In this document: one piece after another, positions 7,425 to 36,398 of the stretch
Position numbering within the stretch: the stretch's first letter is position 1
Layout of the letters: each line of letters opens with the position of its first letter
From: Candidatus Ruminococcus equi
Lineage (GTDB): Bacteria > Bacillota > Clostridia > Oscillospirales > Acutalibacteraceae
Direction: 5' to 3'
DNA length: 64,000 bases
Assembly: GCA_018065465.1 (NCBI GenBank)
Contig: JAGHTC010000009.1
Location: forward strand, 9,484 to 73,483
The notes under the pieces: model-generated
Seen by the model: the letters and a program-made list of their open reading frames with translations, nothing else
Told to the model about the DNA's origin: nothing
The model's database searches: none
Position numbers and translations under genes: made by a program

Positions 7425-8471
7425 ATGAAGATTATTTCCACCAGTGGATATGGTGCAAGCGGTTCTTCTGCTGTGTATGATTTTGTTCGACAATTTAATG
7501 AAGTAAATTGCTTTAGCGGAAGCGAAGAATTCCAATTTATTCGTATGCCTGACGGTATAATGGACTTAAAGCATTTTTTGACCGACGGAAGCGGAATGAT
7601 AGCGTGTAATAATGCTATTATTCGATTTGAAAAAGCAATGAAAAAAGGCTTTTTTGCAGAAAACTGCAGGGGTGTATTAGGGAAAAAGTACGACGATATA
7701 ATTGACAACTATCTAAGCAAAATTATACAAGTGAAATGGAAAGGAAAAAGCATTTTCGATCCCTCCGATATTACGATAAGAAAAGAAAATGTTTTTTTCA
7801 GAAAAATTGATAATAAGATAGAGTCAGCATTAAGAAAAACAGTAAATAAAGAAGCCCATTTTCCTGCAATAAAGGAAAGATATTTTTCGATGATGTCGGA
7901 AAATGAATTTAATAAAATAACAAAAGAATTTGTTGAAGAATTTATATACGCTTTTCCCGGTATAAAAAGCGAAAAGCCCTTACTGATAGACCAAATTTTT
8001 CCTGCTACCGATTCGCAGAAGGGTACAGAATTTTTTGATGAAACGAAAGTAATAATTGTTAACAGAGACCCTCGATGCATGTATGTAGGTGCACACAGAA
8101 GTATTACCGAAAACGCATTTATGCCTTGTGATAATGTAGAGAACTTTGTAAAATATTATCGTGCCTTATGTGAAAATGAAGTAAGGTCCGACAAGGCCTT
8201 GTATGTAAACTATGATGAACTGATTTTTGATTATTATAATACGACACAAAAAATCATAGACTATTTGGGTTTTGATAAACGCCCCGAAAATGAGTTTAAG
8301 CATTTTAATCCGAATGTTTCTGTTACATATACATTGCCTATGCTTACATGTTATGACAAAAAAGATGTGGAGTATATTGAAAAGGAACTGGGCGATTATT
8401 TGTATGATTTTCCGGAGTATAAAAAAATCGAAAAAGCGGATGAATTATACGAAGAGCATGGGATTCAATAA
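7425..8471 (+). CDS. Sulfotransferase-fold protein
   Basis: N-terminal loop 'SGYGASGSSAVYD', 'IIVNRDPR', 'YVNYDELI', 'KIIDYLG' match the sulfotransferase pattern (5'-PSB-like loop, RDPR, YEDL, FLG). Confidence 0.6.
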   Translation: MKIISTSGYGASGSSAVYDFVRQFNEVNCFSGSEEFQFIRMPDGIMDLKHFLTDGSGMIACNNAIIRFEKAMKKGFFAENCRGVLGKKYDDIIDNYLSKIIQVKWKGKSIFDPSDITIRKENVFFRKIDNKIESALRKTVNKEAHFPAIKERYFSMMSENEFNKITKEFVEEFIYAFPGIKSEKPLLIDQIFPATDSQKGTEFFDETKVIIVNRDPRCMYVGAHRSITENAFMPCDNVENFVKYYRALCENEVRSDKALYVNYDELIFDYYNTTQKIIDYLGFDKRPENEFKHFNPNVSVTYTLPMLTCYDKKDVEYIEKELGDYLYDFPEYKKIEKADELYEEHGIQ

Positions 8472-8496: not shown

Positions 8497-10017
8497 ATGA
8501 AACAAAGAAATGAAATAAAAAGCGGAGTAATACTGTCGTATGTATATCTGTCTATCGCGATGATAGCAGGCTTGCTCTATACTCCGCAGATGCTGAGAAT
8601 GATGGGGCAAAGCGAATACGGCTTGTATTCAATAGCAAATTCTGTTATCAGTTACCTGTCGTTTTTGGGACTCGGTCTGGAAAGTGCGTTGATAAAATAT
8701 ACGGCAAAATATATTGCGCTCGAAGACAAAGAATCCGAAAGAAAATTAGGCGGCGGATTCATAAAAGTATATCTTATCATTGCTGCGGTAACTTTGGTTT
8801 GCGGTTTTGTTCTTGCAAATAACCTCGGCTTTTTGTCACAAAATCTTACAGCAACAGAAGCATCTCGTTTGAGAATTATTGTAATGATTATGACTGTAAA
8901 CCTTGCCGTCAGTTTTCCAATGGGTGTTTTCGGTGCGGTAATTACGGCGCATGAAAGATTTACTTTCAGAAAAACAGTTGATATAATCCGTGAGATTACT
9001 CTTCCGATTACCATATTGGTTTTCTTATCAATGGGTTACAGAGCAATCGGTTTGGTTGTTATACATACGGTATTTAACTTTATCGTATTGATATCTAATT
9101 TCATTTATGCCAGAAAAGTATTAGGATATAAACCCATATTTGCAAAATTTGATATACCACTCATTAAAGAAATAACGGGATATACTGTGTTCATTTTTAT
9201 CGGAACAGTTGTTGACAGAATAAGTGATGCAACAAACAGTATGGTTATTGCTGCGGTGTCCGGCGCTGCCGCTGTTGCGGTATTCGGAGTCAGTATACAA
9301 ATATATGGGTATTATCTGAATTTTTCATCTTCAATCTCTACTTTCTTTTTCCCGAGAGTTGTCGGAATGACATATAAAAATGCAAGCGATGAAGAAGTTA
9401 CCGATTTGTTTATCAAAGTCGGCAGAGTGCAACTCTATGTTATTGCGTTAATTTGTAGTGGATTTATTGTTATCGGCAGAGATTTTATTAATCTTTGGGC
9501 AGGACCCGAGTATAGTATGGCGTACTATATTATTGTAGTTTTGATGGTACCTACGCTGATTAACAGAAGTCAGTCACTCGGTGTACAGATTTTGCAAGCG
9601 AGGAACAAGCATAAATTCAGGGCAATTTTATTCTTGTTTATTACTTTGTTGGATATAGGAATAAGTATTCCGCTTGCTATGATGTGGGATGGTTTAGGTG
9701 CTGCTATCGGTACATTTATCGCTACACTTATCGGCCCGATAATTATTATGAATATTTATTATTCAAAGAAAATGCATTTGGATATGAAAAGATATTGGAA
9801 AAGAACAATTCCGATACTCTTGCTTGTAGCGGTTCTTGTTGCACTGGGACTTTTAATGAACTATTTCTGGAAAGCAGACAACTGGATTGTATTGCTTGCA
9901 CAGGGACTAATTTATCTGGTTGTTTACGCTTTTGTAATGTATTTTATTGCATTTAATGATTATGAAAAGGGCTTAATTACGGGATTTATTTCCAAATTCA
10001 AAAGGAAAAAGGCGTAA
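8497..10017 (+). CDS. wzx: Oligosaccharide flippase (Wzx/MOP family)
   Basis: 506 aa, 12-14 hydrophobic segments, 'LGQSEYGLYS'-like N-terminus 'MGQSEYGLYSIANS'. Confidence 0.88.
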   Translation: MKQRNEIKSGVILSYVYLSIAMIAGLLYTPQMLRMMGQSEYGLYSIANSVISYLSFLGLGLESALIKYTAKYIALEDKESERKLGGGFIKVYLIIAAVTLVCGFVLANNLGFLSQNLTATEASRLRIIVMIMTVNLAVSFPMGVFGAVITAHERFTFRKTVDIIREITLPITILVFLSMGYRAIGLVVIHTVFNFIVLISNFIYARKVLGYKPIFAKFDIPLIKEITGYTVFIFIGTVVDRISDATNSMVIAAVSGAAAVAVFGVSIQIYGYYLNFSSSISTFFFPRVVGMTYKNASDEEVTDLFIKVGRVQLYVIALICSGFIVIGRDFINLWAGPEYSMAYYIIVVLMVPTLINRSQSLGVQILQARNKHKFRAILFLFITLLDIGISIPLAMMWDGLGAAIGTFIATLIGPIIIMNIYYSKKMHLDMKRYWKRTIPILLLVAVLVALGLLMNYFWKADNWIVLLAQGLIYLVVYAFVMYFIAFNDYEKGLITGFISKFKRKKA

Positions 10018-10044: not shown

Positions 10045-10914
10045 ATGAAAGGCATCATTCTTGCCGGTGGAAAAGGCACAAGACTTTATCCTATGACAAA
10101 GGTTGTATCAAAACAACTTTTACCTGTATATGATAAGCCGATGATATATTATCCGCTTTCTATGCTTATGCTTGCGGGCATCAGAGAAATTCTTATTATT
10201 TCCACACCTGAGGACACTCCTCTTTATGAACAACTGCTTAGTGATGGAAGTAAACTTGGGATTTCGATTACATATAAAATTCAAGATACTCCTCGGGGAC
10301 TTGCCGACGCTTTTGTACTTGGTAAAGATTTTATCAGTGACGACAGTGTTTGTCTTATTTTAGGTGACAATATTTTTTACGGACAAGATATGACAAATAT
10401 TCTCTGTCAGGCAAAAGAAAATTTAGACGGAGCAACGGTTTTCGGTTATCCGGTAAAAGACCCGACTGAATTTGGTGTAGTTGAATTTGATGAAAACAAT
10501 AAGGTCATTTCCATAGAAGAAAAGCCAAAAAACCCGAAGTCAAATTATGCAGTTCCCGGACTGTATTTTTATGATAACAGCGTTGTAGATATTGCAAAAA
10601 ATGTTAAGCCTTCCGCAAGAGGCGAAATCGAAATCACCGCGGTAAATGAAGCATATCTTAATATGGGAAAGCTCAATGTAGTTTTACTCGGCAGAGGTGT
10701 TGCGTGGCTCGATACGGGAACACCGACAGGACTTCTAAATGCTGCACAATATGTTGAAGCGGTGCAGTCAAGGCAAGGCTTTTATATGTCATGTATCGAA
10801 GAAATTGCATGGAGAAAAGGCTTTATTTCAAAAGAAGATTTACGAAAACTCGGCAAAGAATTAAAAATGACCGATTACGGAAAATATATTATTTCTCTTG
10901 CAAAGGAGGATTAA
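10045..10914 (+). CDS. rmlA: Glucose-1-phosphate thymidylyltransferase
   Basis: '[34 protein letters not shown]', '[10 protein letters not shown]', 'WLDTGT'. Confidence 0.97.
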
Positions 10915-10917
10915 CAA

Positions 10918-11937
10918 ATGAAAATTTTGGTAACAGGCGGTGCCGGATTTATCGGCTCGAATTTTGTATATTATATGTTGAAAAATTATCCCGATTACAA
11001 GATAATCTGCGTTGATTGTCTTACCTATGCGGGAAATCTTTCAACATTAAAAGAAGCGCTTGAAAATAAGAATTTCAAATTTTACAAAACGAATATCTGT
11101 GACCGCAAGGGTATATACGAAATTTTTGAAACGGAAAAACCCGATATAGTTGTAAATTTTGCGGCTGAAAGTCATGTTGACCGTTCAATCGAAAATCCCG
11201 AGGTTTTTTTGCAGACAAATATATTAGGTACACAGGTTCTTATGGACGCTTGCAGGAAATACGGCAATATTCGTTATCATCAGGTATCTACCGATGAAGT
11301 GTATGGCGATTTACCTCTTGACAGGCCTGATTTGTTTTTTACCGAAGAAACTCCTTTGCACACTTCAAGTCCGTATTCTTCTTCAAAAGCAAGTGCTGAT
11401 TTGCTTGTGCTTGCATATTACCGCACTTATGCGCTTCCGGTAACAATTAGCCGTTGTTCAAATAATTACGGGCCATTCCACTTTCCCGAAAAACTTATTC
11501 CGCTTATGATAGCGAATGCGTTAAATGACAAGCCACTTCCTGTATATGGAAAAGGCGAAAATGTCAGGGATTGGCTGTATGTAGAAGACCACTGCAAGGC
11601 GATTGACTTGATTATTCACAACGGAAGAATAGGCGAAGTTTATAATGTCGGCGGCCACAACGAAATGAGAAATATCGACATAGTAAAACTCATTTGTGAC
11701 AAACTCAATAAACCGCAAAGCCTTATTACCTTTGTAACCGACAGAAAAGGTCACGATATGCGATATGCTATCGACCCGACAAAAATTCACAACGAGCTTT
11801 CGTGGTTACCGGAGACTAAATTTGCCGACGGCATTGATAAAACAATAGATTGGTACTTGACTCACAGAGAATGGTGGGAAGAGATTATATCCGGCGAGTA
11901 TCAAAATTATTATGAGAAAATGTATAAAAACAGATAA
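10918..11937 (+). CDS. rmlB: dTDP-glucose 4,6-dehydratase
   Basis: 'VTGGAGFIGSN', 'NFAAESHVDRSI', 'STDEVYG', 'PYSSSKA', 'SNNYGP.HFPEKLIP'. Confidence 0.97.
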   Translation: MKILVTGGAGFIGSNFVYYMLKNYPDYKIICVDCLTYAGNLSTLKEALENKNFKFYKTNICDRKGIYEIFETEKPDIVVNFAAESHVDRSIENPEVFLQTNILGTQVLMDACRKYGNIRYHQVSTDEVYGDLPLDRPDLFFTEETPLHTSSPYSSSKASADLLVLAYYRTYALPVTISRCSNNYGPFHFPEKLIPLMIANALNDKPLPVYGKGENVRDWLYVEDHCKAIDLIIHNGRIGEVYNVGGHNEMRNIDIVKLICDKLNKPQSLITFVTDRKGHDMRYAIDPTKIHNELSWLPETKFADGIDKTIDWYLTHREWWEEIISGEYQNYYEKMYKNR

Positions 11938-11939
11938 TA

Positions 11940-12974
11940 ATGCAGGAGTTTATTATGAGAGATAATCAGGTGGAATTAAGCATTTCCATAACGGTATACA
12001 ATCATGAGAATTATCTTGAAAAGCTTTTTGACAGCATATTGTGCCAAAAGGTAAACTTCAATTATGAAGTTGTTATCGGAGAAGATTGCTCTACAGATAA
12101 TTCCAGAGAAATTATAAGAAGATACGCACAAAAATATGATTTTTTCAAGCCGATATTCCGTGAAAAAAACATCGGTGGCACAGCGAATGAATTTGATACA
12201 TATCAACATTGTACCGGAAAATATATGTGTATTATTGACGGTGATGATTTTATCATAGATGAAAACCGTCTGCAAAGGCAGTACGAATATATGGAGTCTC
12301 ATCCTGACGCTTACTGGGTTGGAGCAAGAGGGAAAATTGTTGATGAAAATAACAACATTTTACCATATAAGCATTTTGATAAAGTTGAAGTACTTACCCC
12401 GGAGTCGTTGAAAAAGTTTTCGAATATGCCGAATTTAGGTTGTTTTATGTTCAAAAATATTTTTTTGAATGATACGGACAGGGAAAATTTATCAAAACTT
12501 CTTTTTACACATACCATTATTGGAGATTGGACAATTCTTTTATATTATCTTGATAAATCAGATGTAGAAATTTTTCCCGATTATGTTCACTGTTACAGAA
12601 AAGTGGTAAACAGTACAGCAAGTAACTTTAATTCAATTTACAGACGGCAGAAAAATAAATACGATGTAATTGTTGAACGAATGCAATACGAACAAATGCT
12701 GAATGAATATAAGTTTGATCGTGTATCTGTAAATTATTTGCGGTCAAAAAAGGCTGCAGAATTATATGCTGCTTTAGTGCGCGATAAAAGTCTTTCGAGT
12801 AGAAAATACGGGAGAGAGGTTTATAAAAAAGAATTTAAGCCTTTTATGACAGCAAAGGAAAGATGGACTTTACCTATTGGTGTAATAAAGGAGTATTACT
12901 CATATTACAAAATTTTTAGGGAACATGGTATTCTCAAAAAAGAAACCGCAGATGAAATTGGTAAAAAGGTATAA
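11940..12974 (+). CDS. Glycosyltransferase family 2
   Basis: 'SITVYNHENYL', 'EVVIGEDCSTDNS', 'CIIDGDDF'. Confidence 0.88.
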   Translation: MQEFIMRDNQVELSISITVYNHENYLEKLFDSILCQKVNFNYEVVIGEDCSTDNSREIIRRYAQKYDFFKPIFREKNIGGTANEFDTYQHCTGKYMCIIDGDDFIIDENRLQRQYEYMESHPDAYWVGARGKIVDENNNILPYKHFDKVEVLTPESLKKFSNMPNLGCFMFKNIFLNDTDRENLSKLLFTHTIIGDWTILLYYLDKSDVEIFPDYVHCYRKVVNSTASNFNSIYRRQKNKYDVIVERMQYEQMLNEYKFDRVSVNYLRSKKAAELYAALVRDKSLSSRKYGREVYKKEFKPFMTAKERWTLPIGVIKEYYSYYKIFREHGILKKETADEIGKKV

Positions 12975-13000
12975 AATTTTTTCTTTTGGAGGACATTATT

Positions 13001-14371
13001 TTGCTTCAAAATGTTTGCAAATTGCTGGTTGATTCTTGGCAAAGAAATGACGGAACTGAAACAATTGATTCCATACTTTCATGGGTGCAAAAGCGAAACG
13101 AAACGCTTCATGTTGAAATTAATAAAGTGTCTTTGGACGAATGTGATGATTGGCACTACGATTGCAGTGACGGAACAATACACAACAAAAATCGCTCCTT
13201 CTTTTCTATTGCAGGAATGAAAAGCGTAAGCGGCAGTAATGTTGTTGAACAGCCTGTTCTGTTGCAAAAAGAAATCGGATATCTCGGCTTTATCTGTAAG
13301 CCGATAAACGGTGTTTTACATTTTCTCGTTCAAGCGAAAATTGAGCCGGGAAATGTAAATACAATACAACTTTCACCGACAATCCAAGCCACAAAAAGCA
13401 ATTTTACTCAAAAACACGGTGGCAAAAAGCCAATGTACTTACGATATTTTATCAATGCGAATAAAGACAATATTTTAGTTGACCAAATTCAATCGGAGCA
13501 ATCATCAAGATTTTTGAAAAAGAGGAACAGAAATATTATTATTGTCTTTGATGAAGATGAAAAAATAGAGTGTAAGCCATCGCACAAGTGGTTAACTTTG
13601 GGACAAATTAAGGCGTTAATGCATTATCCTAATTTAGTCAATATGGACACAAGAACGGTTCTGTCGTGTATTCCGTATGCTTTGCTTGACAGAAACGATG
13701 TTAATTGTGAAGATAATCCTGTTTTATTATCAGTATTTTCATTACCCGAAAGAGAAAAAATAGTGGAAATGTTTCACTCTGTTAATAATATGAAAATGTT
13801 TGAAAGCAGAGAAAACGAAATAGTTGATTTGTATTCTCTTTCCGATTGGGAAATGAAAGACGGAGAATATGTATGCAAAAAGCCTTATCCGATGAAAGTG
13901 ATTTTCTGTGATATTTCTATCGAAGAAAGGGAAGTAAGCCATTGGTGTCAACCGCTGTTTGAAGCAACAGGAAAAGCACTGTTTTGTCTGTTGTGTGCAG
14001 ATGTTGACGGAAAAAGAGAGTTTTTAGTCCGACTTACCCCTGAAATAGGCTGTTTTGATACCGTGGAAATAGGACCTACTTTGCAAAGAGAAGCAGTATA
14101 CAGCGGTGATGAAGATGAGGTTTCAAGACTTATCTTTTCAAAAATTGCAAACAAAGACTCAATTATTTTTGATTCGGTTTTATCTGAAGAGGGCGGACGT
14201 TTTTATCATGAAGAAAATCGGAACATAATAATCAAGATTGATAAAGATGAGATAAAGGATTTGCCAAGCGGATATTTTTGGTGTAATTTTGCTACACTTA
14301 ATTCACTGAATATGGTTAATAATTGTTTGAATATTCAACTAAGAAATTTGATGTCTTTATTGGAGATATAA
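13001..14371 (+). CDS. NDP-hexose 2,3-dehydratase (EvaA/SpnO/OleV/TylX3 family)
   Basis: Two internally repeated domains: 'FLVQAKIEPGN..QLSPTIQATKSN', 'QSEQSSRFLKKRNRN' and 'FLVRLTPEIG..EIGPTLQ', 'LSEEGGRFYHEENRN'. Start moved to TTG 13001, 7 nt after GGAGGA (12988-12993). Confidence 0.9.
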   Translation: MLQNVCKLLVDSWQRNDGTETIDSILSWVQKRNETLHVEINKVSLDECDDWHYDCSDGTIHNKNRSFFSIAGMKSVSGSNVVEQPVLLQKEIGYLGFICKPINGVLHFLVQAKIEPGNVNTIQLSPTIQATKSNFTQKHGGKKPMYLRYFINANKDNILVDQIQSEQSSRFLKKRNRNIIIVFDEDEKIECKPSHKWLTLGQIKALMHYPNLVNMDTRTVLSCIPYALLDRNDVNCEDNPVLLSVFSLPEREKIVEMFHSVNNMKMFESRENEIVDLYSLSDWEMKDGEYVCKKPYPMKVIFCDISIEEREVSHWCQPLFEATGKALFCLLCADVDGKREFLVRLTPEIGCFDTVEIGPTLQREAVYSGDEDEVSRLIFSKIANKDSIIFDSVLSEEGGRFYHEENRNIIIKIDKDEIKDLPSGYFWCNFATLNSLNMVNNCLNIQLRNLMSLLEI

Positions 14372-14372
14372 T

Positions 14373-15383
14373 ATGGATAAATTAAGAGTAGGAGTTTTGG
14401 CTCCTTCTGAAATTGCTTTTAGACGTTTTGTTCCGGCAATATTAAAAAGCGATAAACTTGAATTTGCCGGTGTTTCCTGTGCCACTGAAAAAGAGTGGGG
14501 AACAGACGACAGTAATGAAATAATCAAAAGTGAATTTGATAAAGCAAATAACTTTGTCGAAAATTTTGGCGGGAAAGTGTATTTGGGATATGAGGATATA
14601 CTTTCCGATGACAGTATTGATGCAGTTTATGTTCCGCTTCCTCCGGGATTGCATTACAAATGGGGTAAAAGGGTACTCGAAAGCAAAAAACACCTTTTGT
14701 TGGAAAAACCATTTTCCGATAGTGTTGAACATACAAAGGAATTACTTGAGACGGCAAAGTTAAATAATCTTGCCGTGCATGAAAACTTTGCCTTTGTATA
14801 TCACAAGCAAATTGACAAAATTTTGGAATTGGTAAATGATGGCGCAATTGGTGAAACGAGACTGATTAGGACAGCGTTTGGTTTTCCATATCGTGGGGAA
14901 AACGATTTCAGATACCATAAGAATATGGGCGGAGGAGCTTTGCTTGATTGCGGGGGCTATCCGACAAGACTTGCGTCTTTGTTGTTGGGTGAGAGTGCAA
15001 AAGTAGTTTGTTCATCACTGTGCGCTGCAAAAGGACATGATGTCGATGTTTTCGGAAGTGCGACTGTTCAGAATGATTCAAGATTGACTGCACAGATTTC
15101 TTTCGGTATGGACAACTCATATAAATGTGAGCTTGAAATTTGGGGAGAAAGAGGAGTCATTTATACACCGAGAGTCTTTACCCCAACAGCACAGATGAAT
15201 ACGGTTATAATGCTGAAAACCAATGAGGAACAGGAAATAGTAATAGAGCCGGATGACCAATTTTTTAATTCTGCTTTAGTATTACTTGATTGTGTTAACG
15301 ACAAAAATTTCAGAGAAAAAAGAATGACTGAAATACTGAATCAATCATTATTAATGAATGAAATCAGGGAGTGTGCAAAATGA
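14373..15383 (+). CDS. Gfo/Idh/MocA oxidoreductase, probable NDP-hexose 3-ketoreductase (KijD10/SpnN/OleW-like)
   Basis: 'RVGVLAPSEIAFRRFVPAI', 'VYVPLPPGLH', 'LLEKP', 'GGGALLDCGGYP'; starts 1 nt after the dehydratase stop. Confidence 0.82.
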   Translation: MDKLRVGVLAPSEIAFRRFVPAILKSDKLEFAGVSCATEKEWGTDDSNEIIKSEFDKANNFVENFGGKVYLGYEDILSDDSIDAVYVPLPPGLHYKWGKRVLESKKHLLLEKPFSDSVEHTKELLETAKLNNLAVHENFAFVYHKQIDKILELVNDGAIGETRLIRTAFGFPYRGENDFRYHKNMGGGALLDCGGYPTRLASLLLGESAKVVCSSLCAAKGHDVDVFGSATVQNDSRLTAQISFGMDNSYKCELEIWGERGVIYTPRVFTPTAQMNTVIMLKTNEEQEIVIEPDDQFFNSALVLLDCVNDKNFREKRMTEILNQSLLMNEIRECAK

Positions 15384-16471
15384 GCAAAATTCAAGTAGTT
15401 CGTTCGTCTATGCCTCCTTATGAGGAATATTGCGAAGAAATAAAAGATTTGTGGGAGAACAGATGGCTTACTCATCAAGGACCAAAACATCAGCAACTCG
15501 AAAAAGATTTGCGCAAATATCTTGATGTAGATAATATTACTTTATTTGCAAACGGACATCTTGCTTTGGAACTTGCAATAAAAGCATTCGGGCTTACCGG
15601 AGAAGTAATTACTACACCATATACTTTTGCGTCTACTACACAGGCTATTGTCAGAAATGGGCTTGTGCCGGTCTTTTGTGATATAAATCCGATTGATTAT
15701 ACTATTGATGTCAACAAGATAGAAGATTTGATTACAGAGAAAACTTCTGCAATTATTCCTGTCCATGTTTACGGTTCGATTTGTGACTATGAAAGAATTG
15801 AAAAAATCGCAAATAAATATAATTTGAAAGTAATTTATGATGCTGCGCATGCGTTCGGAATAAAAATCGGTTCAAAGCCTGTCGGTACACTCGGCGATGC
15901 ATCTATGTTCAGTTTTCACGCCACCAAGGTGTATCATACTGTTGAAGGTGGCGGACTTACTTACAGTGACAGTACGCTCACAGAAAAGTTAGACCAACTC
16001 AAGCAGTTCGGAATGTACGGAAAAGATGAAGTGCCGACTGTCGGAACAAATGCAAAGATGACAGAAGCACACGCCGCTATGGGTTTATGTAACCTTCGAC
16101 ATATAGATGAAGAAATTGCAAAGCGCAAAGTTGCTTTTGACAGATATATGGAAAATCTCGGTGGGATTGACGGGATTAAACTTATGAAAATTCAAGATTC
16201 AGTTAAGCATAATTATGCTTATTTTCCTGCTGTGTTCGATGGCTACAAATATTCAAGAGATGAAATAGAAAGAAAACTTGCTGAAAATGATATTTTCGCA
16301 AGAAAGTATTTCTATCCGATTACTAACGAGTTTGAAGCATATAAAGGTATGTTTGAAATTCAGCAAACACCGATTGCAAAGTATATTTCAGAACGGGTTT
16401 TAACTTTACCGCTGTATGCTGATTTATCGGTTGATGATGTTGATAGAATTTGCAAATTGATTATTGAGTAG
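15380..16471 (+). CDS. DegT/DnrJ/EryC1/StrS PLP aminotransferase (VioA-like sugar C4-aminotransferase)
   Basis: 'VITTPYTFAST', 'IYDAAHAFG', 'FSFHATK' (PLP Lys), 'GTNAKMTE'; ATGA overlap at 15380. Confidence 0.9.
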   Translation: MSKIQVVRSSMPPYEEYCEEIKDLWENRWLTHQGPKHQQLEKDLRKYLDVDNITLFANGHLALELAIKAFGLTGEVITTPYTFASTTQAIVRNGLVPVFCDINPIDYTIDVNKIEDLITEKTSAIIPVHVYGSICDYERIEKIANKYNLKVIYDAAHAFGIKIGSKPVGTLGDASMFSFHATKVYHTVEGGGLTYSDSTLTEKLDQLKQFGMYGKDEVPTVGTNAKMTEAHAAMGLCNLRHIDEEIAKRKVAFDRYMENLGGIDGIKLMKIQDSVKHNYAYFPAVFDGYKYSRDEIERKLAENDIFARKYFYPITNEFEAYKGMFEIQQTPIAKYISERVLTLPLYADLSVDDVDRICKLIIE

Positions 16472-16497
16472 TATTGATTTGCAGGCTGAGGTGTCAT

Positions 16498-17682
16498 ATG
16501 GGAATAAAAACGGCATTAAGAAAAACGGCTGAAAAGATTTTTCAGTCAAAGTGGTATCCAAACAAAAAAATACTTTTGGAAAGCAAACCCGATATGGGAT
16601 GTCAGACCTATCCTGTTTTTCAGTATATGCTAAAAGAAGGTTTGAATGAAAAGTACAAACTTATTTGGCTTGTTAGTAATAAGGACGAGTACAAAGATGT
16701 TCATATAAAAAATGTTAAATTTCTAAATTATGAGCCACAGAATTTCTTTGAGCGGTTTTACAGAAGATATCTTCTTTTTACGTCAAGAGCAATGATGTAT
16801 TCTAACAGGTATATTGGGAAAGTCTTTGATAAACAATTACTTGTATATTTGCGACATGGTACTGCATCAATTAAATCAAGAATAAAACACAGAAGAGAAA
16901 ACGATATTAACGAGAGTGATATAAGTATCAGTATATCTCATTTTTTTGATGACATTGATGTAATGGAACTGAATATCAGAAGAGAAAGTCTTTTTGAATC
17001 GGGCTGCCCGAGAAGCGACTATCTGTTTGAATCTGTTGATTATTGTGAAAAACTTTTTCCTGAAAACAAATATGATAAAATCATTATCTGGATGCCTACT
17101 TTCAGAAAAACTGATTCTAGTGACAGAATTGACTCAACTTTTGAATTCCCTTTGGGGTTGCCATGCTTATATTCAAATGAAGATTGTGAAAGATTAAATG
17201 AAGCATTGGCAAATAATAATATTTTGCTTGTACTAAAACCGCATCCTGCACAGGATTTATCTGTATTAAAATCAATGAACCTGTCTAACTTTGTTACAGT
17301 ATATGACAGTGATATAAAGAAAGCGGGTATTCAACTTTATCAGTTTTTGGGCTCAACGGATGCCTTGATTACCGACTATTCTTCGGTATATTATGATTAC
17401 CTTCTTACAGGAAAAAATATCGGCATTACCATTGATGATATTGATGAATATGTAAAAGATACAGGTTTTGTATTTGACAATGTTTTTGATATACTCGTCG
17501 GAGAATATATCAAAAATACCGATGAGTTTATTGAATTTGTAAAACATATTGCAAGCGGAGAAGACAGCAAAAAAGAACAAAGAGAAAAAGTTTGCAATTT
17601 AGTTCATAAATATAAAGACAATCAATCTACAAAAAGAGTCTATGAGCATATTGTAGAGGAACTTGAAAAAAGATACCAATAA
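16498..17682 (+). CDS. TagB/TagF-family (CDP-glycerol glycerophosphotransferase-like) protein
   Basis: 'YLRHGT', 'GCPRSD', 'WMPTFRK', 'LKPHP', 'DALITDYSSVYYDYLL'. Start moved to ATG 16498 after GAGGTG. Confidence 0.88.
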   Translation: MGIKTALRKTAEKIFQSKWYPNKKILLESKPDMGCQTYPVFQYMLKEGLNEKYKLIWLVSNKDEYKDVHIKNVKFLNYEPQNFFERFYRRYLLFTSRAMMYSNRYIGKVFDKQLLVYLRHGTASIKSRIKHRRENDINESDISISISHFFDDIDVMELNIRRESLFESGCPRSDYLFESVDYCEKLFPENKYDKIIIWMPTFRKTDSSDRIDSTFEFPLGLPCLYSNEDCERLNEALANNNILLVLKPHPAQDLSVLKSMNLSNFVTVYDSDIKKAGIQLYQFLGSTDALITDYSSVYYDYLLTGKNIGITIDDIDEYVKDTGFVFDNVFDILVGEYIKNTDEFIEFVKHIASGEDSKKEQREKVCNLVHKYKDNQSTKRVYEHIVEELEKRYQ

Positions 17683-17694
17683 CGGAGGGATAGT

Positions 17695-18474
17695 ATGAAA
17701 GTTGTAATTCTTGCCGGCGGTTACGGAACGAGAATTTCAGAGGAATCACACCAAAAGCCGAAGCCTATGATAGAAATAGGCGAAATGCCTATTCTTTGGC
17801 ACATTATGAAAGAGTATTCTCACTACGGAATAAATGAATTTATCATTTGTGCGGGATACAAACAACATGTAATCAAAGAGTGGTTTGCCGACTATTTTCT
17901 TCATACTTCGGATATCACCTTTGACTTTACAAACGGTGACGAAATTATCGTTCACAATAAGCGTGCCGAATCGTGGAAAGTTACTGTTGTTGATACGGGA
18001 CTAAATACTCAAACAGGCGGAAGAGTTAAGAGAATAAAAGACTATATCGGTGACGAAACTTTTATGCTTACCTACGGTGATGCTGTCGGTGATATCGATA
18101 TAGATGCATTGTTAAAGAAACATAAGGAAAGCAAGAAACTCGGTACTATATCTGTATATAATTTCGGACAGAACAAGGGTGTTGTGAAACTTAACCCCGA
18201 CGGCACTGTTGACAAATTCAGAGAAAAAAGCGGAATTGACGGCGACCTTATCAATATCGGATATATGGTTTTTGAACCGAAGATTTTTGACTACATTGAC
18301 GGCGACGACACCGTATTTGAGAAAGAGCCTATCGAGGCTTTGGTTGAGCAAAATCAACTGATAAGTTACCTCCACAAGGGTTATTGGCAGTGTATGGATA
18401 CATTAAGAGAAAAGCAGAAATTAGAAAGCCTTTGGGCAAGCGGTAATGCTCCGTGGAAAGTGTGGGAAGACTGA
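17695..18474 (+). CDS. rfbF: Glucose-1-phosphate cytidylyltransferase
   Basis: 'VILAGGYGTRISEES..KPKPMIEIG', 'VDTGLNTQTGGR', 'YWQCMDTLREK'. Confidence 0.96.
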   Translation: MKVVILAGGYGTRISEESHQKPKPMIEIGEMPILWHIMKEYSHYGINEFIICAGYKQHVIKEWFADYFLHTSDITFDFTNGDEIIVHNKRAESWKVTVVDTGLNTQTGGRVKRIKDYIGDETFMLTYGDAVGDIDIDALLKKHKESKKLGTISVYNFGQNKGVVKLNPDGTVDKFREKSGIDGDLINIGYMVFEPKIFDYIDGDDTVFEKEPIEALVEQNQLISYLHKGYWQCMDTLREKQKLESLWASGNAPWKVWED

Positions 18475-19529
18475 TGAATTTTGACCTTTCGTTTTATAAA
18501 GGAAAAAGAGTTTTTGTTACCGGACACACAGGATTCAAAGGCTCTTGGCTTTGCAAAATCCTGCAAAACGCAGGGGCAGAAGTTTTCGGCTATTCGCTTG
18601 AGCCTCCGACAAATCCCTCGTTATTTGAGATAGCCGACATTGAAAAAAATATGACTTCTTTTATCGGGGATATAAGAGATTACAAAGCCTTGAAAGAAGC
18701 GTTTGACAAAGCGCAACCCGAAATTGTTTTGCACCTTGCGGCACAGCCTATCGTCAGGGACAGTTACAAAGAGCCCGTGTATACTTATGAGACAAATGTT
18801 ATGGGTACAGTAAACATTCTCGAATGTGTGAGAACAACCGACTGTGTAAAATCTTTGCTGAATGTTACAACCGACAAGGTTTACTATAACAGAGAAGAAC
18901 AGGGACACGGCTATACTGAAGACGAAATGCTCGACGGCTACGACCCGTATTCGAACTCAAAGTCTTGTTCCGAACTTGTGACTCACAGTTATAAGAGAAG
19001 TTTTTTTGCTGACAGAGATATTGCCATTTCAACAGCAAGAGCGGGTAACGTTATCGGCGGCGGAGATTTTTCTAACGACAGAATTATTCCCGACTGTATC
19101 AGGGCGGCACAGAAAAAAGAAAACATTACCGTCCGTAACCCTTATTCAACAAGACCGTATCAACATGTGCTTGAACCGTTGTTTGCATATCTTATGATTG
19201 CGGCAAAGCAGTATGATGATATTACTCTTGCAGATTACTATAATGTCGGTCCCGATGATTGCGACTGCTTTGAAACCGGGGCTTTGGTAGATTTGTTTGT
19301 AAAGCACTGGGGCGATATTAAATGGGAAAACAAGAGCGACGGCGGTCCTCACGAGGCAAACTTCTTAAAACTCGACTGTACAAAATTGAAAAAGACTTTC
19401 TCTTGGCAGCCGAGGTGGAATCTAGATAAAGCAATAGAGAAAACAGTACAGTGGAGCAAATGCTGGCTTAGTGGCGGCGATGTCAGAATTTGTATGGATA
19501 AACAAATTGAAGAGTTTTTTAATTTATAA
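18474..19529 (+). CDS. rfbG: CDP-glucose 4,6-dehydratase
   Basis: 'VTGHTGFKGSWL', 'HLAAQPIVR.SY', 'TTDKVY', 'DPYSNSK', 'RAGNVIGGGD', 'RPYQHVLEPL'; TGATG overlap. Confidence 0.96.
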   Translation: MNFDLSFYKGKRVFVTGHTGFKGSWLCKILQNAGAEVFGYSLEPPTNPSLFEIADIEKNMTSFIGDIRDYKALKEAFDKAQPEIVLHLAAQPIVRDSYKEPVYTYETNVMGTVNILECVRTTDCVKSLLNVTTDKVYYNREEQGHGYTEDEMLDGYDPYSNSKSCSELVTHSYKRSFFADRDIAISTARAGNVIGGGDFSNDRIIPDCIRAAQKKENITVRNPYSTRPYQHVLEPLFAYLMIAAKQYDDITLADYYNVGPDDCDCFETGALVDLFVKHWGDIKWENKSDGGPHEANFLKLDCTKLKKTFSWQPRWNLDKAIEKTVQWSKCWLSGGDVRICMDKQIEEFFNL

Positions 19530-19543
19530 GGATAGATGATATT

Positions 19544-20467
19544 ATGAAAAAAGTAATTGTGACAGGTGCTAATGGCTTTATAGGTACTTCATTGCTCGAA
19601 CTTATGAGCAAAGAAGATGTTCTGATTTTTGCTATAATTAAAGATGAAAGTGAAGATATAAGCAAAATCAAAGATTATGATAATGTCAAGATAATTTACT
19701 GCGATTTCAACTACATAGAAAAATTGCCGAATTTAATAACCGACAGAGATATAGATTATTGTATTCATCTTGCTTGGGCAGGTTCATTTGGAGATGCTCG
19801 TGCCGACTATGACTGTCAACTGAATAATGTCAAAGCAACATTAGATTTGATTGAAGTTTTAAAAGAAATGAAAGTCAAAAGATTTGTCGGTGCCGGTACA
19901 CTTGCCGAAAAAGATGTACTGAATTATCATATGACAGACGGCGCAACACCCAATGCAGTAAGTATATATGGAATAGCAAAACTCACAAATCAGTTAATGA
20001 CAAAGGCATTATGTTCTAAATATGGGATTGAGCATATCTGGTGCTATTTGTCAAACACTTACGGTGTTGGCAATACCACAAATAATTTTGTGAATATGGC
20101 AAGCCGAAAAATGATACGCGGTGAACGGGCATCATTTACTTCCGGAGAACAGACATACGATTTTGTATATATTACCGATACAGTCAAAGCAATCAACTGT
20201 GTTGCAAAATTTGGAAAGAAAAACTGTTCCTATTATTTGGGAAGCACTAAAGAACGCCCGCTGAAAGAATACATCAAAATTATCAAAGATACTGTTGACC
20301 CGCATATAGAACTTTATTTAGGAGAGGTACCGTTTAACGGAAAAGCACTTTCTTGTGAAAACTACAGTGCTGAAAAACTTGTTGAACATACAGGATTTGT
20401 TCCGTCTGTTGATTTTGAAGACGGAATAAAAAAGACCGTTGAATGGCTAAAAGAACAGGAGAAATAA
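19544..20467 (+). CDS. Extended SDR, probable NDP-4-keto-6-deoxyhexose reductase/epimerase
   Basis: 'VTGANGFIG', 'HLAWAG', 'YGIAK'. Confidence 0.8.
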   Translation: MKKVIVTGANGFIGTSLLELMSKEDVLIFAIIKDESEDISKIKDYDNVKIIYCDFNYIEKLPNLITDRDIDYCIHLAWAGSFGDARADYDCQLNNVKATLDLIEVLKEMKVKRFVGAGTLAEKDVLNYHMTDGATPNAVSIYGIAKLTNQLMTKALCSKYGIEHIWCYLSNTYGVGNTTNNFVNMASRKMIRGERASFTSGEQTYDFVYITDTVKAINCVAKFGKKNCSYYLGSTKERPLKEYIKIIKDTVDPHIELYLGEVPFNGKALSCENYSAEKLVEHTGFVPSVDFEDGIKKTVEWLKEQEK

Positions 20468-21034
20468 ATGGTACAGAAATTTGAATTTACACCGCTTGAG
20501 CTTGAGGGCGCATATCTTATCAAGCCTTTTTATGCAACGGACGACCGCGGTGGTCTTATCAAAGATTATAATGTCGATACATTCAAAGCAAACGGAATTG
20601 ACCACGACTTAAAGGAAGTTTTCTACACTATTTCAAAGCGCGGCGTTATCCGTGCTACACATTTTCAACTGGTAAAACAGCAGGCTAAATTAGTCCGTTG
20701 TGTCAGCGGTCATGTCTATGATGTTATCGTTGACCTGCGAATTGATTCACCTACTTTCGGTAAGTGGCAGGGCTTTCACCTTACAGGTGAAAACACCAAT
20801 TCTTTGCTGGTGCCCCAGTATTTCGGTCACGGTTATCTTGTAATTGAAGACTCCGTTGTCAGTTACAAATGTGCCGAAGTGTTCTACGGTGAAGGTGATT
20901 CGGGCATTATGTATAATGACCCCGACATTGCTATAGAATGGCCTTTTGAACTTATCGGCGGAAAAGAAAATCTTATTATCAGCGAAAAGGACAAAGCCCT
21001 TATGTCGCTGAAGGATTATAAAAAATTATTCTGA
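20468..21034 (+). CDS. RmlC-family NDP-4-keto-6-deoxyhexose 3,5-epimerase
   Basis: 'RGVIRATHFQ..QAKLVRC..G.VYDVIVDLR.DSPTFGKW', 'FGHGY', 'SYKC'; His/Lys/Tyr catalytic positions present. Confidence 0.92.
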   Translation: MVQKFEFTPLELEGAYLIKPFYATDDRGGLIKDYNVDTFKANGIDHDLKEVFYTISKRGVIRATHFQLVKQQAKLVRCVSGHVYDVIVDLRIDSPTFGKWQGFHLTGENTNSLLVPQYFGHGYLVIEDSVVSYKCAEVFYGEGDSGIMYNDPDIAIEWPFELIGGKENLIISEKDKALMSLKDYKKLF

Positions 21035-21050: not shown

Positions 21051-22196
21051 TTGACAGACAGAGAATTACTCGCACTCGGCTATGATATTATTTATCTTAT
21101 TTCGTGTGCGATAAAGGACGAAATTCCCGAAAAAGAAAAAGTCAATAATATGTCGTTTGCCGATATTTACAGTTTATCCGCAAAGCATACAGTAACCGCA
21201 CTTATCGGCTATCCGCTGTGTAAGTGCGACTTTCTTTCACAAGACGAAAAAGTGCCGTTTTCAAATGCTGTGGATATTGCAAAACTGCGTGCTGTTACCG
21301 TTGGTGCCGAAAGAGAAAGTATACTTTCATTTATGAGAGAAAACGGGATATGGTATCTTTTGATGAAAGGTCTTGTGATAAGAGATTTATATCCGAAAAG
21401 TTATCTTCGTGAAATGACCGATAACGATATTCTCTACAACTCGGATTTTTACGGAAAAGTTAAGCAGTTTATGCTCTCAAAGGGGTATAAAAGCGATACC
21501 GTAACTGCGGGTACGAGCGTAGATGAATACGAAGCAGAACCGTATTTTTACTTTGAACTTCACAAACGCTTTTTTATGGCTGATGAGGATTTGTATAACT
21601 CTTATTACGCCGATATGAGTAAGTTTTTAGTAAAAACCGACTCCGATTTTGAGTACAAACTTTCCGATGAGGATTTTTATGTATATATGGTGCTCCACAG
21701 CTTTAAGCATTATAAAAGCGGCGGTATCGGTATTCGTTTTTTGATAGACTGCTATCTTTACAACGAAAAGAAAAAGTCACTCGATAGAAGTTATATTGAC
21801 GAGCAACTGAAAATCTTGCAAATATACGATTTTGAAAAAGAGTTTTCACGCCTTGCAAAAAGCCTTTTTGAAAATGAAAAGCTTTCGAAAGACGATGAGG
21901 AAAAATTCCTTTGTTATCTAAAGTCGGATACTTTCGGAACACAAAGTCAAAGACTCAAAAAGAGCATTGAAAAAATATCGGGTAACGATAATTTTGGTGA
22001 CGAGGAAAAGAAAAAATATATAAAAAACAGGCTGTTTCCTGACTTGGAATGGTTTCGAGGGAATGTGCCGTTTTGCTACAATCACAGATGGGCTATACCT
22101 TTTTACGACATATACAGACTCTTTTCAAGAGGCATAAAAAACAGAAAAAAAATAAAAAAAGAAGTTAAAGAAATAAAAAAACTCGGTAGAGATTGA
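21051..22196 (+). CDS. Uncharacterised nucleotidyltransferase-fold protein (NTP_transf_5-like)
   Basis: TTG start; 'LMKGLVIRDLYP..LREMTDNDIL', 'FELH', 'HSFKHY..GGIGIRFLID'. Confidence 0.78.
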   Translation: MTDRELLALGYDIIYLISCAIKDEIPEKEKVNNMSFADIYSLSAKHTVTALIGYPLCKCDFLSQDEKVPFSNAVDIAKLRAVTVGAERESILSFMRENGIWYLLMKGLVIRDLYPKSYLREMTDNDILYNSDFYGKVKQFMLSKGYKSDTVTAGTSVDEYEAEPYFYFELHKRFFMADEDLYNSYYADMSKFLVKTDSDFEYKLSDEDFYVYMVLHSFKHYKSGGIGIRFLIDCYLYNEKKKSLDRSYIDEQLKILQIYDFEKEFSRLAKSLFENEKLSKDDEEKFLCYLKSDTFGTQSQRLKKSIEKISGNDNFGDEEKKKYIKNRLFPDLEWFRGNVPFCYNHRWAIPFYDIYRLFSRGIKNRKKIKKEVKEIKKLGRD

Positions 22197-22771
22197 TTAT
22201 GATTGACAGAATACTTGTATCTATTTATGATGCACCACTGCAAAAAACGCTTTTCGTAGTTGCCTTCTTTATAATATTATGGATTGTCTTTTCCGTTTTG
22301 TCGGTGAAAAAGGGAAAATTTGCTTTTGCTTTTAGGGTAATAAATTTTGCTGTTTTCTTTGTATCTGTTTTCGGGATAATTGCAATGACGGTTCTTTCAA
22401 GGCAAGAGGGAAGTTTTCAGAACAATTTTATTCCCTTTGCGTATCTGAAGGAAAATGAATTTTTGTTTGATCTAAAGCGTTCAATGCTTATGAACAGTAT
22501 TTTATTTATACCTTTCTCGTTAACTTTTCCCTTTGTTTTGGGCAGTAAGTTTTCGTGGAAAAACGCTATCCTTACCTTAGTGTTCGGTATTATGTTTTCC
22601 GTTTGTGTTGAGGCAGTGCAGTTGTTTTTATCAATCGGAAAAGCGGATATTGATGATGTGATTTTCAACACCTTGGGTGTCGTTATCGGCGAAATCCCGT
22701 ATATGATTTATGGTCTATTCAGCAGAAAGAACGGTGAGAAAAATAAACATAGAAGATATAAACATCAATAA
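22193..22771 (+). CDS. VanZ-family membrane protein
   Basis: Hydrophobic; 'NSILFIPF', 'VEAVQ..LSIGKADIDDVIFNTLG'. ATG 22199 is an alternative start. Confidence 0.85.
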   Translation: MIMIDRILVSIYDAPLQKTLFVVAFFIILWIVFSVLSVKKGKFAFAFRVINFAVFFVSVFGIIAMTVLSRQEGSFQNNFIPFAYLKENEFLFDLKRSMLMNSILFIPFSLTFPFVLGSKFSWKNAILTLVFGIMFSVCVEAVQLFLSIGKADIDDVIFNTLGVVIGEIPYMIYGLFSRKNGEKNKHRRYKHQ

Positions 22772-23264
22772 TGCACCCATAGAAACAGAAAGAAAATTTC
22801 TTATTGAATTTCCAGATATCGAAAAACTGTCTTTGATGCCATCATATTCTTGTGTTCATATTGAACAGACTTATCTGAAAAAAGAAAACGGCGACAAATG
22901 CAGAGTAAGAAAAATTATGGATAGTCAAGGGGTTAAGTATATATTTACACAAAAGGAAAAGATTTCCGAACTTTCGCGCTACGAGTTTGAAACTCAAATC
23001 AGTAAAGAAGAATACGAAAATCTGCTTTTATTAAAAATGCCACACTCAAATACGATAATAAAAGACAGGCATACGTTCTTTTACAATAATCAAAAATACG
23101 AAGTAGATATTTATGAATTTTGGACTGATAAAGCAACAATGGAAGCAGAAACAGAAAAGGAAGATACACAAGTGCTGATACCGCCTTGTGTTACGCTTAT
23201 AGAAGAAGTAACATTCGACAGGCGGTACAGAAATTCATCTCTTGCAAAAAATCATACATTTTAG
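22710..23264 (+). CDS. CYTH-domain (triphosphate tunnel) protein
   Basis: ExExK motif 'IETERKFLI', 'IEQTYL', 'RVRK', 'KDRHTF', 'YEVDIY', 'MEAE'; exact start uncertain. Confidence 0.85.
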   Translation: MVYSAERTVRKINIEDININNAPIETERKFLIEFPDIEKLSLMPSYSCVHIEQTYLKKENGDKCRVRKIMDSQGVKYIFTQKEKISELSRYEFETQISKEEYENLLLLKMPHSNTIIKDRHTFFYNNQKYEVDIYEFWTDKATMEAETEKEDTQVLIPPCVTLIEEVTFDRRYRNSSLAKNHTF

Positions 23265-23266
23265 TA

Positions 23267-23300
23267 AAAGCGACTTATCTTTTGATAGGTCGCTTTCTTT
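23267..23300 (+). terminator. Intrinsic terminator ending the polysaccharide operon
   Basis: AAAGCGACTTATC-TTTT-GATAGGTCGCTTT stem (one G.T pair) followed by CTTT. Confidence 0.8.
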
Positions 23301-23308
23301 ATATTTAG

Positions 23309-23337
23309 TTGACAATATACATAAAAAGTAATATAAT
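23309..23337 (+). promoter_or_regulatory. Consensus sigma-A promoter for capD-galE-glmS
   Basis: TTGACA (23309-14), 17 nt, TATAAT (23332-37). Confidence 0.85.
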
Positions 23338-34510: not shown

Positions 34511-34548
34511 ACAGAAACCCCTCATTTTCTTATTATAAACCATCTTAT

Positions 34549-34577
34549 ATAATACTAAAACGCAAGGTATTAGTCAA
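34549..34577 (-). promoter_or_regulatory. Sigma-A promoter for the acyltransferase operon
   Basis: Minus strand TTGACT, 17 nt, TATTAT. Confidence 0.65.
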
Positions 34578-34621
34578 CAACATAAAAGAATTATAAAGGT
34601 TACAACTTCAAGCGGGAAAAT

Positions 34622-34650
34622 TTGACTTTTGCTTATCGGTAATGTAAAAT
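34622..34650 (+). promoter_or_regulatory. Sigma-A promoter for FHA-FtsW/PBP
   Basis: TTGACT, 17 nt, TAAAAT. Confidence 0.7.
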
Positions 34651-34682
34651 TAGACTATATTTACAGTAAAAGAGGGAAGACA

Positions 34683-36374: not shown

Positions 36375-36398
36375 CAGGAAAGCAAAGGTGATTGATTT

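Follow-up and report, generated by a model that had tools for sequence, protein, structure and literature searches.

Introduction

Proteins of the TagF family are annotated by default as CDP-glycerol glycerophosphotransferases (CDP, cytidine diphosphate), and are taken to indicate a "teichoic-acid-like polyol phosphate". Other chemistry has been described for some members. The TagF-like domains of CslB, Cps12B, Cps1B and Ccs2 transfer hexose-1-phosphate and release uridine monophosphate (UMP) (Litschko et al. 2018, PMC5974469), and FtaD, a TagF-like enzyme of C. difficile, is a CDP-N-methylthreonine:GlcNAc phosphotransferase (bioRxiv 10.64898/2026.02.12.704994). The synthesis of CDP-6-deoxyhexoses is known from C. 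jejuni HS:41, in which a cytidylyltransferase (HS41.21), a 4,6-dehydratase (HS41.20), a 3,5-epimerase that is annotated as RmlC yet acts on CDP-4-keto-6-deoxyglucose (HS41.19), a C4-reductase (HS41.18) and a GLF-type mutase that makes furanoses (HS41.17) give CDP-D-fucofuranose / CDP-6-deoxy-L-altrofuranose (Simons, Narindoshvili, Raushel 2025, PMC12369002); a GLF-type enzyme can thus be a CDP-6-deoxyhexose mutase. Here we analyze a stretch of 64,000 nt from Candidatus Ruminococcus equi (GCA_018065465.1, JAGHTC010000009.1; G000:C87:9484-73483), hereafter the window, in which the gene of a TagF-like protein directly precedes a putative CDP-6-deoxyhexose module. The genome it comes from (G000, the own genome) has 1.73 Mb in 98 contigs, and is 100% complete by marker genes.

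The original prediction for this locus was that the TagF-like enzyme may transfer a 6-deoxyhexose-1-phosphate from the CDP-sugar made by its neighbors. It had noted that some TagF-like capsule polymerases transfer sugar-1-phosphates, which is what CslB, Cps12B, Cps1B and Ccs2 do (PMC5974469), so the proposed chemistry has precedent. Sequence comparison now lends substantial comparative support to the use of a CDP-sugar by this enzyme: a gene linkage that appears in three configurations, a phylogenetic profile, genomes in which neither TarI nor TagD was found, and an atypical donor loop. We consider it rather probable that the CDP-sugar of the cassette is the donor of the TagF-like enzyme in some form. 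On the narrower claim, that the group transferred would be the 6-deoxyhexose-1-phosphate, we stand evenly between belief and doubt.

Results

A TagF-like gene and a CDP-sugar module form one cassette

The genes at 16498-21034 form one cassette, whose members are given in Table 1. Five co-directional open reading frames (ORFs) fill positions 16474-21034. The first is open from a TTG at 16474; its start is the ATG at 16498, which follows a GAGGTG ribosome-binding site and agrees with a near-identical database protein, also of 394 aa. Profile scores give the genes the identities and the order with which they had been predicted: TagF-like, RfbF, RfbG, an extended short-chain dehydrogenase/reductase (SDR) and an RmlC-like epimerase. 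For the SDR, no equivalog model of NCBIfam matched. The window has no tagD or tarIJ, no E1-type dehydrase and no GLF gene. Also correct was the observation that three nucleotide carriers are used side by side, with a UDP-GlcNAc 2-epimerase, GalE and a CapD-like protein for uridine diphosphate (UDP), RmlA and RmlB for deoxythymidine diphosphate (dTDP), and RfbF and RfbG for CDP.

RfbF would make CDP-glucose and RfbG would convert it into CDP-4-keto-6-deoxyglucose, from which epimerization and C4 reduction would lead to a CDP-6-deoxyhexopyranose. That these enzymes yield a CDP-6-deoxyhexose when E1 and E3 are missing was part of the original prediction, and biochemical work on C. jejuni HS:41 has demonstrated such a route (PMC12369002). 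By analogy with HS41.18-21, the product would be CDP-D-fucose and/or CDP-6-deoxy-L-altrose; the window reductase is of a distinct type, and the C4 stereochemistry may therefore differ from that of HS:41. The same analogy leads us to expect the pyranose form. A furanose product was rejected for the own genome, which has no PF03275 match and in which a tblastn search with a related GLF finds nothing; with no mutase, the sugar would stay a pyranose. A 3,6-dideoxyhexose pathway was also rejected. No E1 dehydrase (RfbH/DdhC) was found in the own genome, where an E1-like query reaches at most 29% identity (E3 was not searched for), and the RfbH model gives the DegT gene at 15371-16471 a score of 131.9, for a cut-off of 423. 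Without E1, C3 would not be deoxygenated. An RmlC-like epimerase and an SDR reductase also take part in the ascarylose branch.

The four genes of the module are not equally conserved. Between loci with the four-gene module, identity is 72-99% for RfbF, RfbG and the RmlC-like protein, and the window RfbF is 75-81% identical to the module copies in related four-gene loci. The window SDR, of a type that we name type I, is 72% identical to the copy in locus L138 and 34-42% identical to SDRs in the same position elsewhere; type I is seen only in these two loci. Judged by these identities, it is the reductase that varies within the module.

Action of the RmlC-like and SDR enzymes on dTDP intermediates was the alternative that the original prediction had offered. 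In the form considered here, the pair would serve dTDP-sugars of the L-rhamnose type, and RfbF and RfbG something else. RmlA and RmlB are encoded in the window, the RmlC-like protein scores as an RmlC, and its nearest solved structures are dTDP-type RmlC proteins. HS41.19, however, has the same annotation and a CDP-sugar as its substrate (PMC12369002), and the window RmlC-like protein is 78-86% identical to copies that, together with an SDR, sit beside RfbF and RfbG in two genomes in which RmlA was not found (G001 and G002). If the pair worked on dTDP-sugars, CDP-4-keto-6-deoxyglucose would be left with no downstream enzyme; the own genome has no second RmlC-like gene and no RmlD. We rejected the dTDP role as the principal assignment on the RmlA result, with the reservation that G001 and G002 are metagenome-assembled genomes (MAGs). 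From these comparisons, the pair probably acts on the CDP-sugar.

The linkage is conserved in related loci

Homologs 51-64% identical to the TagF-like protein fall into about 53 groups when clustered at 90% identity, and gut metagenomes are the source of most. The species-representative genomes that carry them are five Clostridia MAGs, assigned to Oscillospiraceae, Acutalibacteraceae, Eubacteriales, an uncultured Clostridia bacterium and an uncultured Eubacterium sp. We inspected 16 distinct contexts of this clade. In 13 of them, the TagF-like gene comes directly ahead of the cassette of RfbF, RfbG, an SDR or an aminotransferase, and an RmlC-like gene. Seven contexts have the order of the window (the window itself, L021/L026, L027, L138, L139, L164 and L167). 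Four (L162, L163, L165 and L166) have a DegT aminotransferase in the place of the SDR, and the TagF-like gene still comes first; the aminotransferases of L162, L163 and L165 are 76-77% identical to each other, and from their gene content all four loci are expected to make a CDP-4-amino-4,6-dideoxyhexose. The other two of the 13 (L029 and L030) have a GLF gene inserted between the TagF-like gene and RfbF. Two further contexts (L028/L024 and L140) consist of a TagF-like-GLF pair alone, in a housekeeping neighborhood (pnp, rpsO ... ksgA, pth, mfd). The genome of L028 (G003) has RfbF-RfbG-SDR-RmlC-like-VanZ in a glycan locus on another contig, and the GLFs of the lone pairs are 63-77% identical to those within the modules of L029 and L030. 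In this split configuration, the TagF-like gene keeps with the last donor-making enzyme, and not with any glycosyltransferase (GT). The gene 5' of the TagF-like gene varies, and can be wzx, a GT (GT2 or GT4), rmlB or a DegT aminotransferase.

We built two trees, a quick maximum-likelihood tree with SH-aLRT support and a FastTree. All the enzymes linked to RfbF or GLF are in one clade (SH-aLRT 96), within which the GLF-linked ones form a subclade (99). Homologs at or below 47% identity have as neighbors mostly IspD-like or TagD-like genes, or nothing recognizable. RfbF is found above cut-off in all seven genomes with a member of the clade or its sister lineage, in none of the four nearest-outgroup genomes, and in 30 of 200 genomes of the own family (15%); G104, a genome of the same genus, has neither a clade TagF-like gene nor RfbF. 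A search of those 200 genomes of the own GTDB family for close TagF-like homologs found none (best 39% identity), so the profile is built from the set of homologs and not from a taxonomic sample. In G002 and G003, TagD has no match and the only IspD-like gene adjoins ispF; accordingly, no TarI was found in either.

More distant relatives were set apart. In the sister lineage (L031, 8282-12109 in G206, an uncultured Lachnospiraceae MAG), the TagF-like gene has a Gln at the catalytic His, wzx is in three ORFs, and the SDR alone is kept beside the TagF-like gene. The locus appears to be decaying, and is informative only for the presence of RfbF. At the level of 37-39% identity, RfbF occurs in five of the seven family genomes with such homologs; these are different systems (in G078 the enzyme is TarI-linked, and G026 and G204 have a yersiniose-like CDP pathway), and we did not use them as support. 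The loci of the latter two (L153 in G026, L154 in G204) have RfbF, RfbG, a 443-aa DegT protein (E1-like), a 603-aa thiamine diphosphate (ThDP)-dependent enzyme and an SDR. This set looks like a yersiniose-type branched CDP-sugar pathway, and is in divergent orientation to GT2 genes and to one or two TagF-like genes with 38% identity to that of the window.

The adjacency could be meaningless if the genes were merely co-inherited within a variable glycan locus, and several of the loci are indeed syntenic, with wzx upstream and VanZ, NTP_transf_5, FtsW and a penicillin-binding protein (PBP) downstream. Against this, the linkage outlasts the change of the upstream gene, the insertion of GLF, the translocation of the TagF-like gene with GLF, and the swap of the SDR for an aminotransferase, which the FastTree puts at no fewer than two places in the clade (at least two separate positions of the aminotransferase variants). 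We regard it as very improbable that either such co-inheritance or the dTDP assignment discussed above accounts for the arrangement.

Fold, catalytic residues and donor loop

The TagF-like protein is a single domain of 394 aa, with neither an N-terminal polymerase domain nor a multi-domain GT-A/TagF-like(/TPR) architecture. Its sole NCBIfam match is to the TarF equivalog NF041712, with 39.5 bits for a cut-off of 550. According to its AF2 model (pLDDT 91.9, pTM 0.90), it has the GT-B-like TagF fold. Foldseek ranks 1-20 are TarL, TagF, the Cps3D entry 8QOY and the capsule multienzyme entries 8A0C/8A0M, with E 1e-13 to 1e-21 and TMq 0.63-0.69. TagF-family enzymes have a catalytic pair of His residues, H444/H584 in TagF and H300/H433 in TarL. 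In the window protein, H128 (in HGT) and H257 (in KPHP) are invariant across 34 homologs. In the alignment, H257 falls on TarL H433, and the HGT motif of H128 on the Cps3D HGTP motif, where the other family His lies. The TDYSS motif of the cytidine pocket is conserved.

A GT-B-like fold is also what a glycosyltransferase would have, in which case the acceptor would attack the anomeric carbon, CDP would be released, and the bond would be glycosidic. The linkage evidence is the same for this explanation as for phosphotransfer, and C. jejuni HS:41, with a capsule of glycosidic bonds only, uses CDP-6-deoxyhexoses as glycosyl donors. We think it improbable. The phosphotransfer mechanism uses two His residues, both of them invariant here, and in TagF/TarL it is the beta-phosphate, not the adjacent carbon, that faces the acceptor (PMC10901376). 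The known sugar-transferring TagF-like domains move hexose-1-phosphate and release a nucleoside monophosphate (PMC5974469), and we found no PF04464 glycosyltransferase in the literature searched.

The loop that follows the first catalytic His (TarL residues 299-308) forms the donor polyol site, where the motif PL marks CDP-glycerol enzymes (TagF/TarF) and GAF marks CDP-ribitol enzymes (TarL/TarK) (PMC10901376). The loop of the window protein, HGTASIK, has neither. The whole clade lacks both the loop Pro and GAF and carries K[SA][RK]xxH, mostly as KSRLxH, whereas relatives that adjoin TagD mostly retain HG[TS]PLK, with the glycerol-type PL. Inside the clade, the loop tends to go with the tailoring enzyme. 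It is HGT[CA][IL]K in those of the sampled loci whose SDR is the common one (type II), HGTS[LY]K or HGACIK in the aminotransferase loci, and HG[ST]FIK in nine of the ten members of the GLF-linked subclade (locus L168 has the motif, and no GLF was seen there). The window and L138, the sole two with a type I SDR, have HGTA[SC]IK, which is one residue longer. This pattern fits a loop that reads the sugar moiety.

Possible other CDP donors in the genome

The absence of CDP-glycerol and CDP-ribitol genes that had been noted holds within the window but not genome-wide. A search for tagD and tarI in the rest of the genome does not find TagD, and does find tarI on contig C83 (NF001183, 379 bits for a cut-off of 166), with a tarJ-like dehydrogenase, a 601-aa LicD protein and TagH/TagG beside it. 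The best match to TagD, at 25.6 bits for a cut-off of 165.4, is a fusion of a cytidylyltransferase and a phosphoenolpyruvate (PEP) mutase. Such a fusion lies on contig C86 (1233-2528, L019; TIGR02320, 412 bits), and suggests a phosphonate decoration of a glycan (e.g. of the CMP-aminoethylphosphonate type; CMP, cytidine monophosphate). Contig C1 (36622-41491, minus strand; L016 6623-11492) encodes, one after the other, a LicD protein (579 aa), an IspD-like cytidylyltransferase with 137 bits on the TarI model (below cut-off), a GatZ/KbaZ-like protein, a galactitol-1-phosphate 5-dehydrogenase-like protein and an Acyl_transf_3 protein. These genes may be a module for decoration with CDP-hexitol-derived phosphate (galactitol- or tagatose-derived). 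The tarIJ and C1 CDP-alditol-like modules each adjoin their own LicD transferase. Contig C47 (4907-6985, L018) encodes a 692-aa protein of unusual architecture, an N-terminal YidC/60KD_IMP domain joined to the C-terminal half of PF04464. Neither this fusion nor a 20-bit match on contig C26 appears suited as another partner for the CDP module.

The presence of these genes brings in the main competing explanation, that the TagF-like enzyme transfers a polyol- or alcohol-phosphate in the conventional way and that its acceptor is a 6-deoxyhexose placed by an ordinary glycosyltransferase. The donor could be CDP-ribitol from the C83 tarIJ genes, the putative CDP-hexitol of C1, or a compound of the CDP-choline or CMP-phosphonate type. 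We judge this unlikely, and the most probable of the alternatives to our proposal. The points that weigh against the proposed transfer from the CDP-sugar by this enzyme are as follows. With tarIJ on C83, the own genome can make CDP-ribitol, and a polyol donor could be supplied in trans; TarI is also above cut-off in G001, G004 and G005. All the characterized Gram-positive members of the TagF family that we found in the literature use CDP-alcohols (polyols or, for FtaD, an amino acid), and none uses a CDP-sugar. Six classical GTs in the glycan locus of the window could place the CDP-sugar, and two genomes (G042 and G108) have the four-gene CDP module with no close TagF-like gene and with GT8 and GT4 after it; together with the glycosidic use in HS:41, this indicates that the CDP-sugar is usable by ordinary glycosyltransferases. 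One of the 16 contexts is an exception to the linkage. In L168, a metagenome contig, an HGSFIK member of the clade has no RfbF in view, and a GT4 and a set of NDP-heptose type (a nucleotidyltransferase-HAD fusion, a GHMP kinase and a SIS isomerase) come after it. The clade is narrow and partly syntenic, so the contexts are not fully independent, and G002 and G003 are MAGs of unknown completeness, which makes their absences weak. The correlation between loop and tailoring enzyme comes from few, related cases and is not strict. The loop could reflect recognition of the acceptor instead, and coupling through the acceptor would explain the co-variation with tailoring enzymes too.

Other observations speak against a polyol donor. 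Neither TarI nor TagD turned up in G002 and G003, TagD is also missing from the own complete genome, and the tarIJ and CDP-alditol modules of the own genome come with LicD transferases next to them. The donor loop has neither of the polyol motifs. In the split configuration, finally, what the enzyme stays with is a donor-making mutase and not a GT.

Genomic setting of the cassette

The cassette genes are all on the plus strand, separated by gaps of 0-15 nt or overlapping, and the first strong terminator is the one at the end of Table 1. From this arrangement, the cassette is the 3' part of one long Wzx/Wzy-type glycan operon, with a phosphoglycosyl transferase upstream. A separate dTDP cassette is inserted between wzx and the TagF-like gene; several related loci keep the CDP cassette without it. 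The NTP_transf_5, VanZ and CYTH genes form a co-transcribed tail that is probably not part of the sugar pathway. The first two of them are seen again at the ends of related loci (L021, L027, L029, L127 and L163-L165).

Table 1. Features of the glycan operon around the TagF-like gene, in window positions.
Feature	Position	Strand	Evidence
wzx	8497-10017		
Separate dTDP cassette: RmlA, RmlB, GT2, 2,3-dehydratase, Gfo-type 3-ketoreductase, DegT aminotransferase	10045-16471	+	
TagF-like protein, PF04464 single-domain, 394 aa; proposed CDP-6-deoxyhexose:glycan 6-deoxyhexose-1-phosphotransferase	16498-17682	+	140.9 bits (cut-off 22.1), profile positions 13-366 of 367
RfbF, glucose-1-phosphate cytidylyltransferase (makes CDP-glucose)	17695-18474	+	TIGR02623 equivalog, 362.2 bits (cut-off 300.25)
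RfbG, CDP-glucose 4,6-dehydratase (makes CDP-4-keto-6-deoxy-D-glucose)	18453-19529	+	TIGR02622 equivalog, 442.8 bits (cut-off 278.45)
Extended SDR, type I, 307 aa; proposed NAD(P)H-dependent C4-ketoreductase of the CDP-sugar	19544-20467	+	PF01370, 109.8 bits
RmlC-fold epimerase; proposed CDP-4-keto-6-deoxyglucose 3,5- (or mono-) epimerase	20468-21034	+	PF00908, 178 bits; TIGR01221, 164 (cut-off 155.75)
NTP_transf_5	21051-22196	+	Pfam
VanZ	22193-22771	+	Pfam
CYTH	22710-23264	+	Pfam
Intrinsic-terminator-like hairpin, 13-bp stem, ending the operon	23267-23296	+	

Several other features of the region were observed. A perfect TTGACA-17-TATAAT promoter (23309-23337) comes right after the terminator and ahead of a CapD-like gene, which makes a clean operon boundary within the glycan region. 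Between a GT4 gene and wzx, the ORF at 7425-8471 has a weak match to Sulfotransfer_3 (24.9 bits, under the cut-off of 27). At 29921-30811, directly after an amino-acid permease gene, a winged helix-turn-helix domain is fused to an NTP_transferase / LicC-like domain. Comparison of window positions 31354-37781 with positions 16270-21188 of L021 (the Oscillospiraceae MAG SIG552) puts the glycan locus at a syntenic chromosomal site. In both, a Pfam-less protein of about 700 aa, encoded on the opposite strand, comes next 3' of the glycan locus, together with an FHA-FtsW fusion and a PBP; the content of the glycan locus differs between the two, as in a variable locus of the serotype type.

Discussion

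In the mechanism that we propose, the TagF-like enzyme would be the dedicated transferase of the cassette, and would bind the CDP-sugar through the retained cytidine pocket. H128 would activate a hydroxyl of the undecaprenyl-linked repeat unit, the putative acceptor, for attack on the beta-phosphate, and CMP would leave with the help of H257. The result would be a 6-deoxyhexose-1-phosphate in phosphodiester linkage, formed at the cytoplasmic face before flipping by Wzx. Since the protein has 394 aa and no N-terminal polymerase domain, and belongs to a Wzx/Wzy locus, most likely one residue would be added per repeat unit. A more general form of this proposal, in which we place slightly less than even confidence, is that the whole clade consists of CDP-hexose:glycan hexose-1-phosphotransferases for 6-deoxy- or 4-amino-4,6-dideoxy-hexoses, in pyranose or furanose form, which receive these from a neighboring RfbF/RfbG-based cassette, introduce them as phosphodiester-linked residues of Wzx/Wzy glycans, and have a donor loop that is tuned to the C4 substituent and the ring form of the sugar.

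Attachment of the sugar through a phosphate bridge, which the TagF-like enzyme may catalyze, is a reaction hitherto undescribed for a CDP-6-deoxy sugar donor. Full-text literature searches found no paper that links a TagF-like enzyme with a CDP-glucose-derived sugar, and no paper that joins fucofuranose or 6-deoxy-altrose with phosphodiester or teichoic chemistry. If the proposal is true, it gives the TagF family its first CDP-sugar donor, and Gram-positives a new route to capsules with sugar-phosphate bridges. The donors known for the TagF fold would then range from CDP-polyols and UDP-hexoses to a CDP-amino acid and CDP-deoxysugars. It would also mean that a recurrent surface-glycan cassette of gut Clostridia is currently misread. 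The locus would further widen the range of the CDP-fucose / 6-deoxy-altrose pathway, recently described in Campylobacter, to commensal Firmicutes. The cassette is a test bed of about 5 kb, with four pathway enzymes, one transferase, and natural swaps of reductase, aminotransferase and mutase, which could show how the donor loop sets specificity, and which could be of use in the glyco-engineering of phosphodiester-linked antigens.

Comparison with known systems

Five described systems resemble parts of this locus. The pathway half is closest to C. jejuni HS:41, with which the window shares four enzyme classes in a cluster and the apparent lack of E1/E3; the relatives L029 and L030 also share a GLF-type mutase inside the module. 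The own genome differs in that it has no mutase, the host is Gram-positive with a Wzx/Wzy locus, and the linked transferase is TagF-like, whereas the Campylobacter sugars are joined glycosidically. The CDP-3,6-dideoxyhexose pathways (Ddh/Asc/Rfb, in Yersinia and Salmonella) share the first two steps, RfbF/DdhA and RfbG/DdhB; unlike the window, they have an E1 (RfbH/DdhC), and their sugars are transferred by classical GTs.

For the transferase, the wall teichoic acid (WTA) enzymes TagF, TarF and TarL (PDB 3L7I-M, 8VA1) share PF04464, the GT-B-like fold (Foldseek TM about 0.67-0.69), the equivalence of H128/H257 to TarL H300/H433, the TDYSS cytidine motif and the N-terminal helix. The window enzyme is 17-20% identical to them, has no PL or GAF, lies outside a WTA locus, and belongs to a genome with no tagD. 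FtaD is alike by description, in that a TagF-like enzyme takes a non-polyol CDP donor from neighboring genes and adds one phospho-substituent to a glycan; its donor is a CDP-amino acid, and its acceptor is the O-GlcNAc of flagellin. The group 2 capsule enzymes CslB, Cps12B, Cps1B and Ccs2 share the TagF fold and the His pair, and their activity is the one that we propose for the window enzyme too: a sugar-1-phosphate is transferred to a sugar hydroxyl, a nucleoside monophosphate is released, and the glycan is bridged by phosphodiesters. They are domains of large GT-A/TagF-like/TPR polymerases for Gram-negative capsules exported by ABC transporters, whereas the window enzyme, a single-domain protein of 394 aa, belongs to a Clostridia Wzx/Wzy locus, is linked with a CDP-6-deoxyhexose module, and probably adds one residue per repeat.

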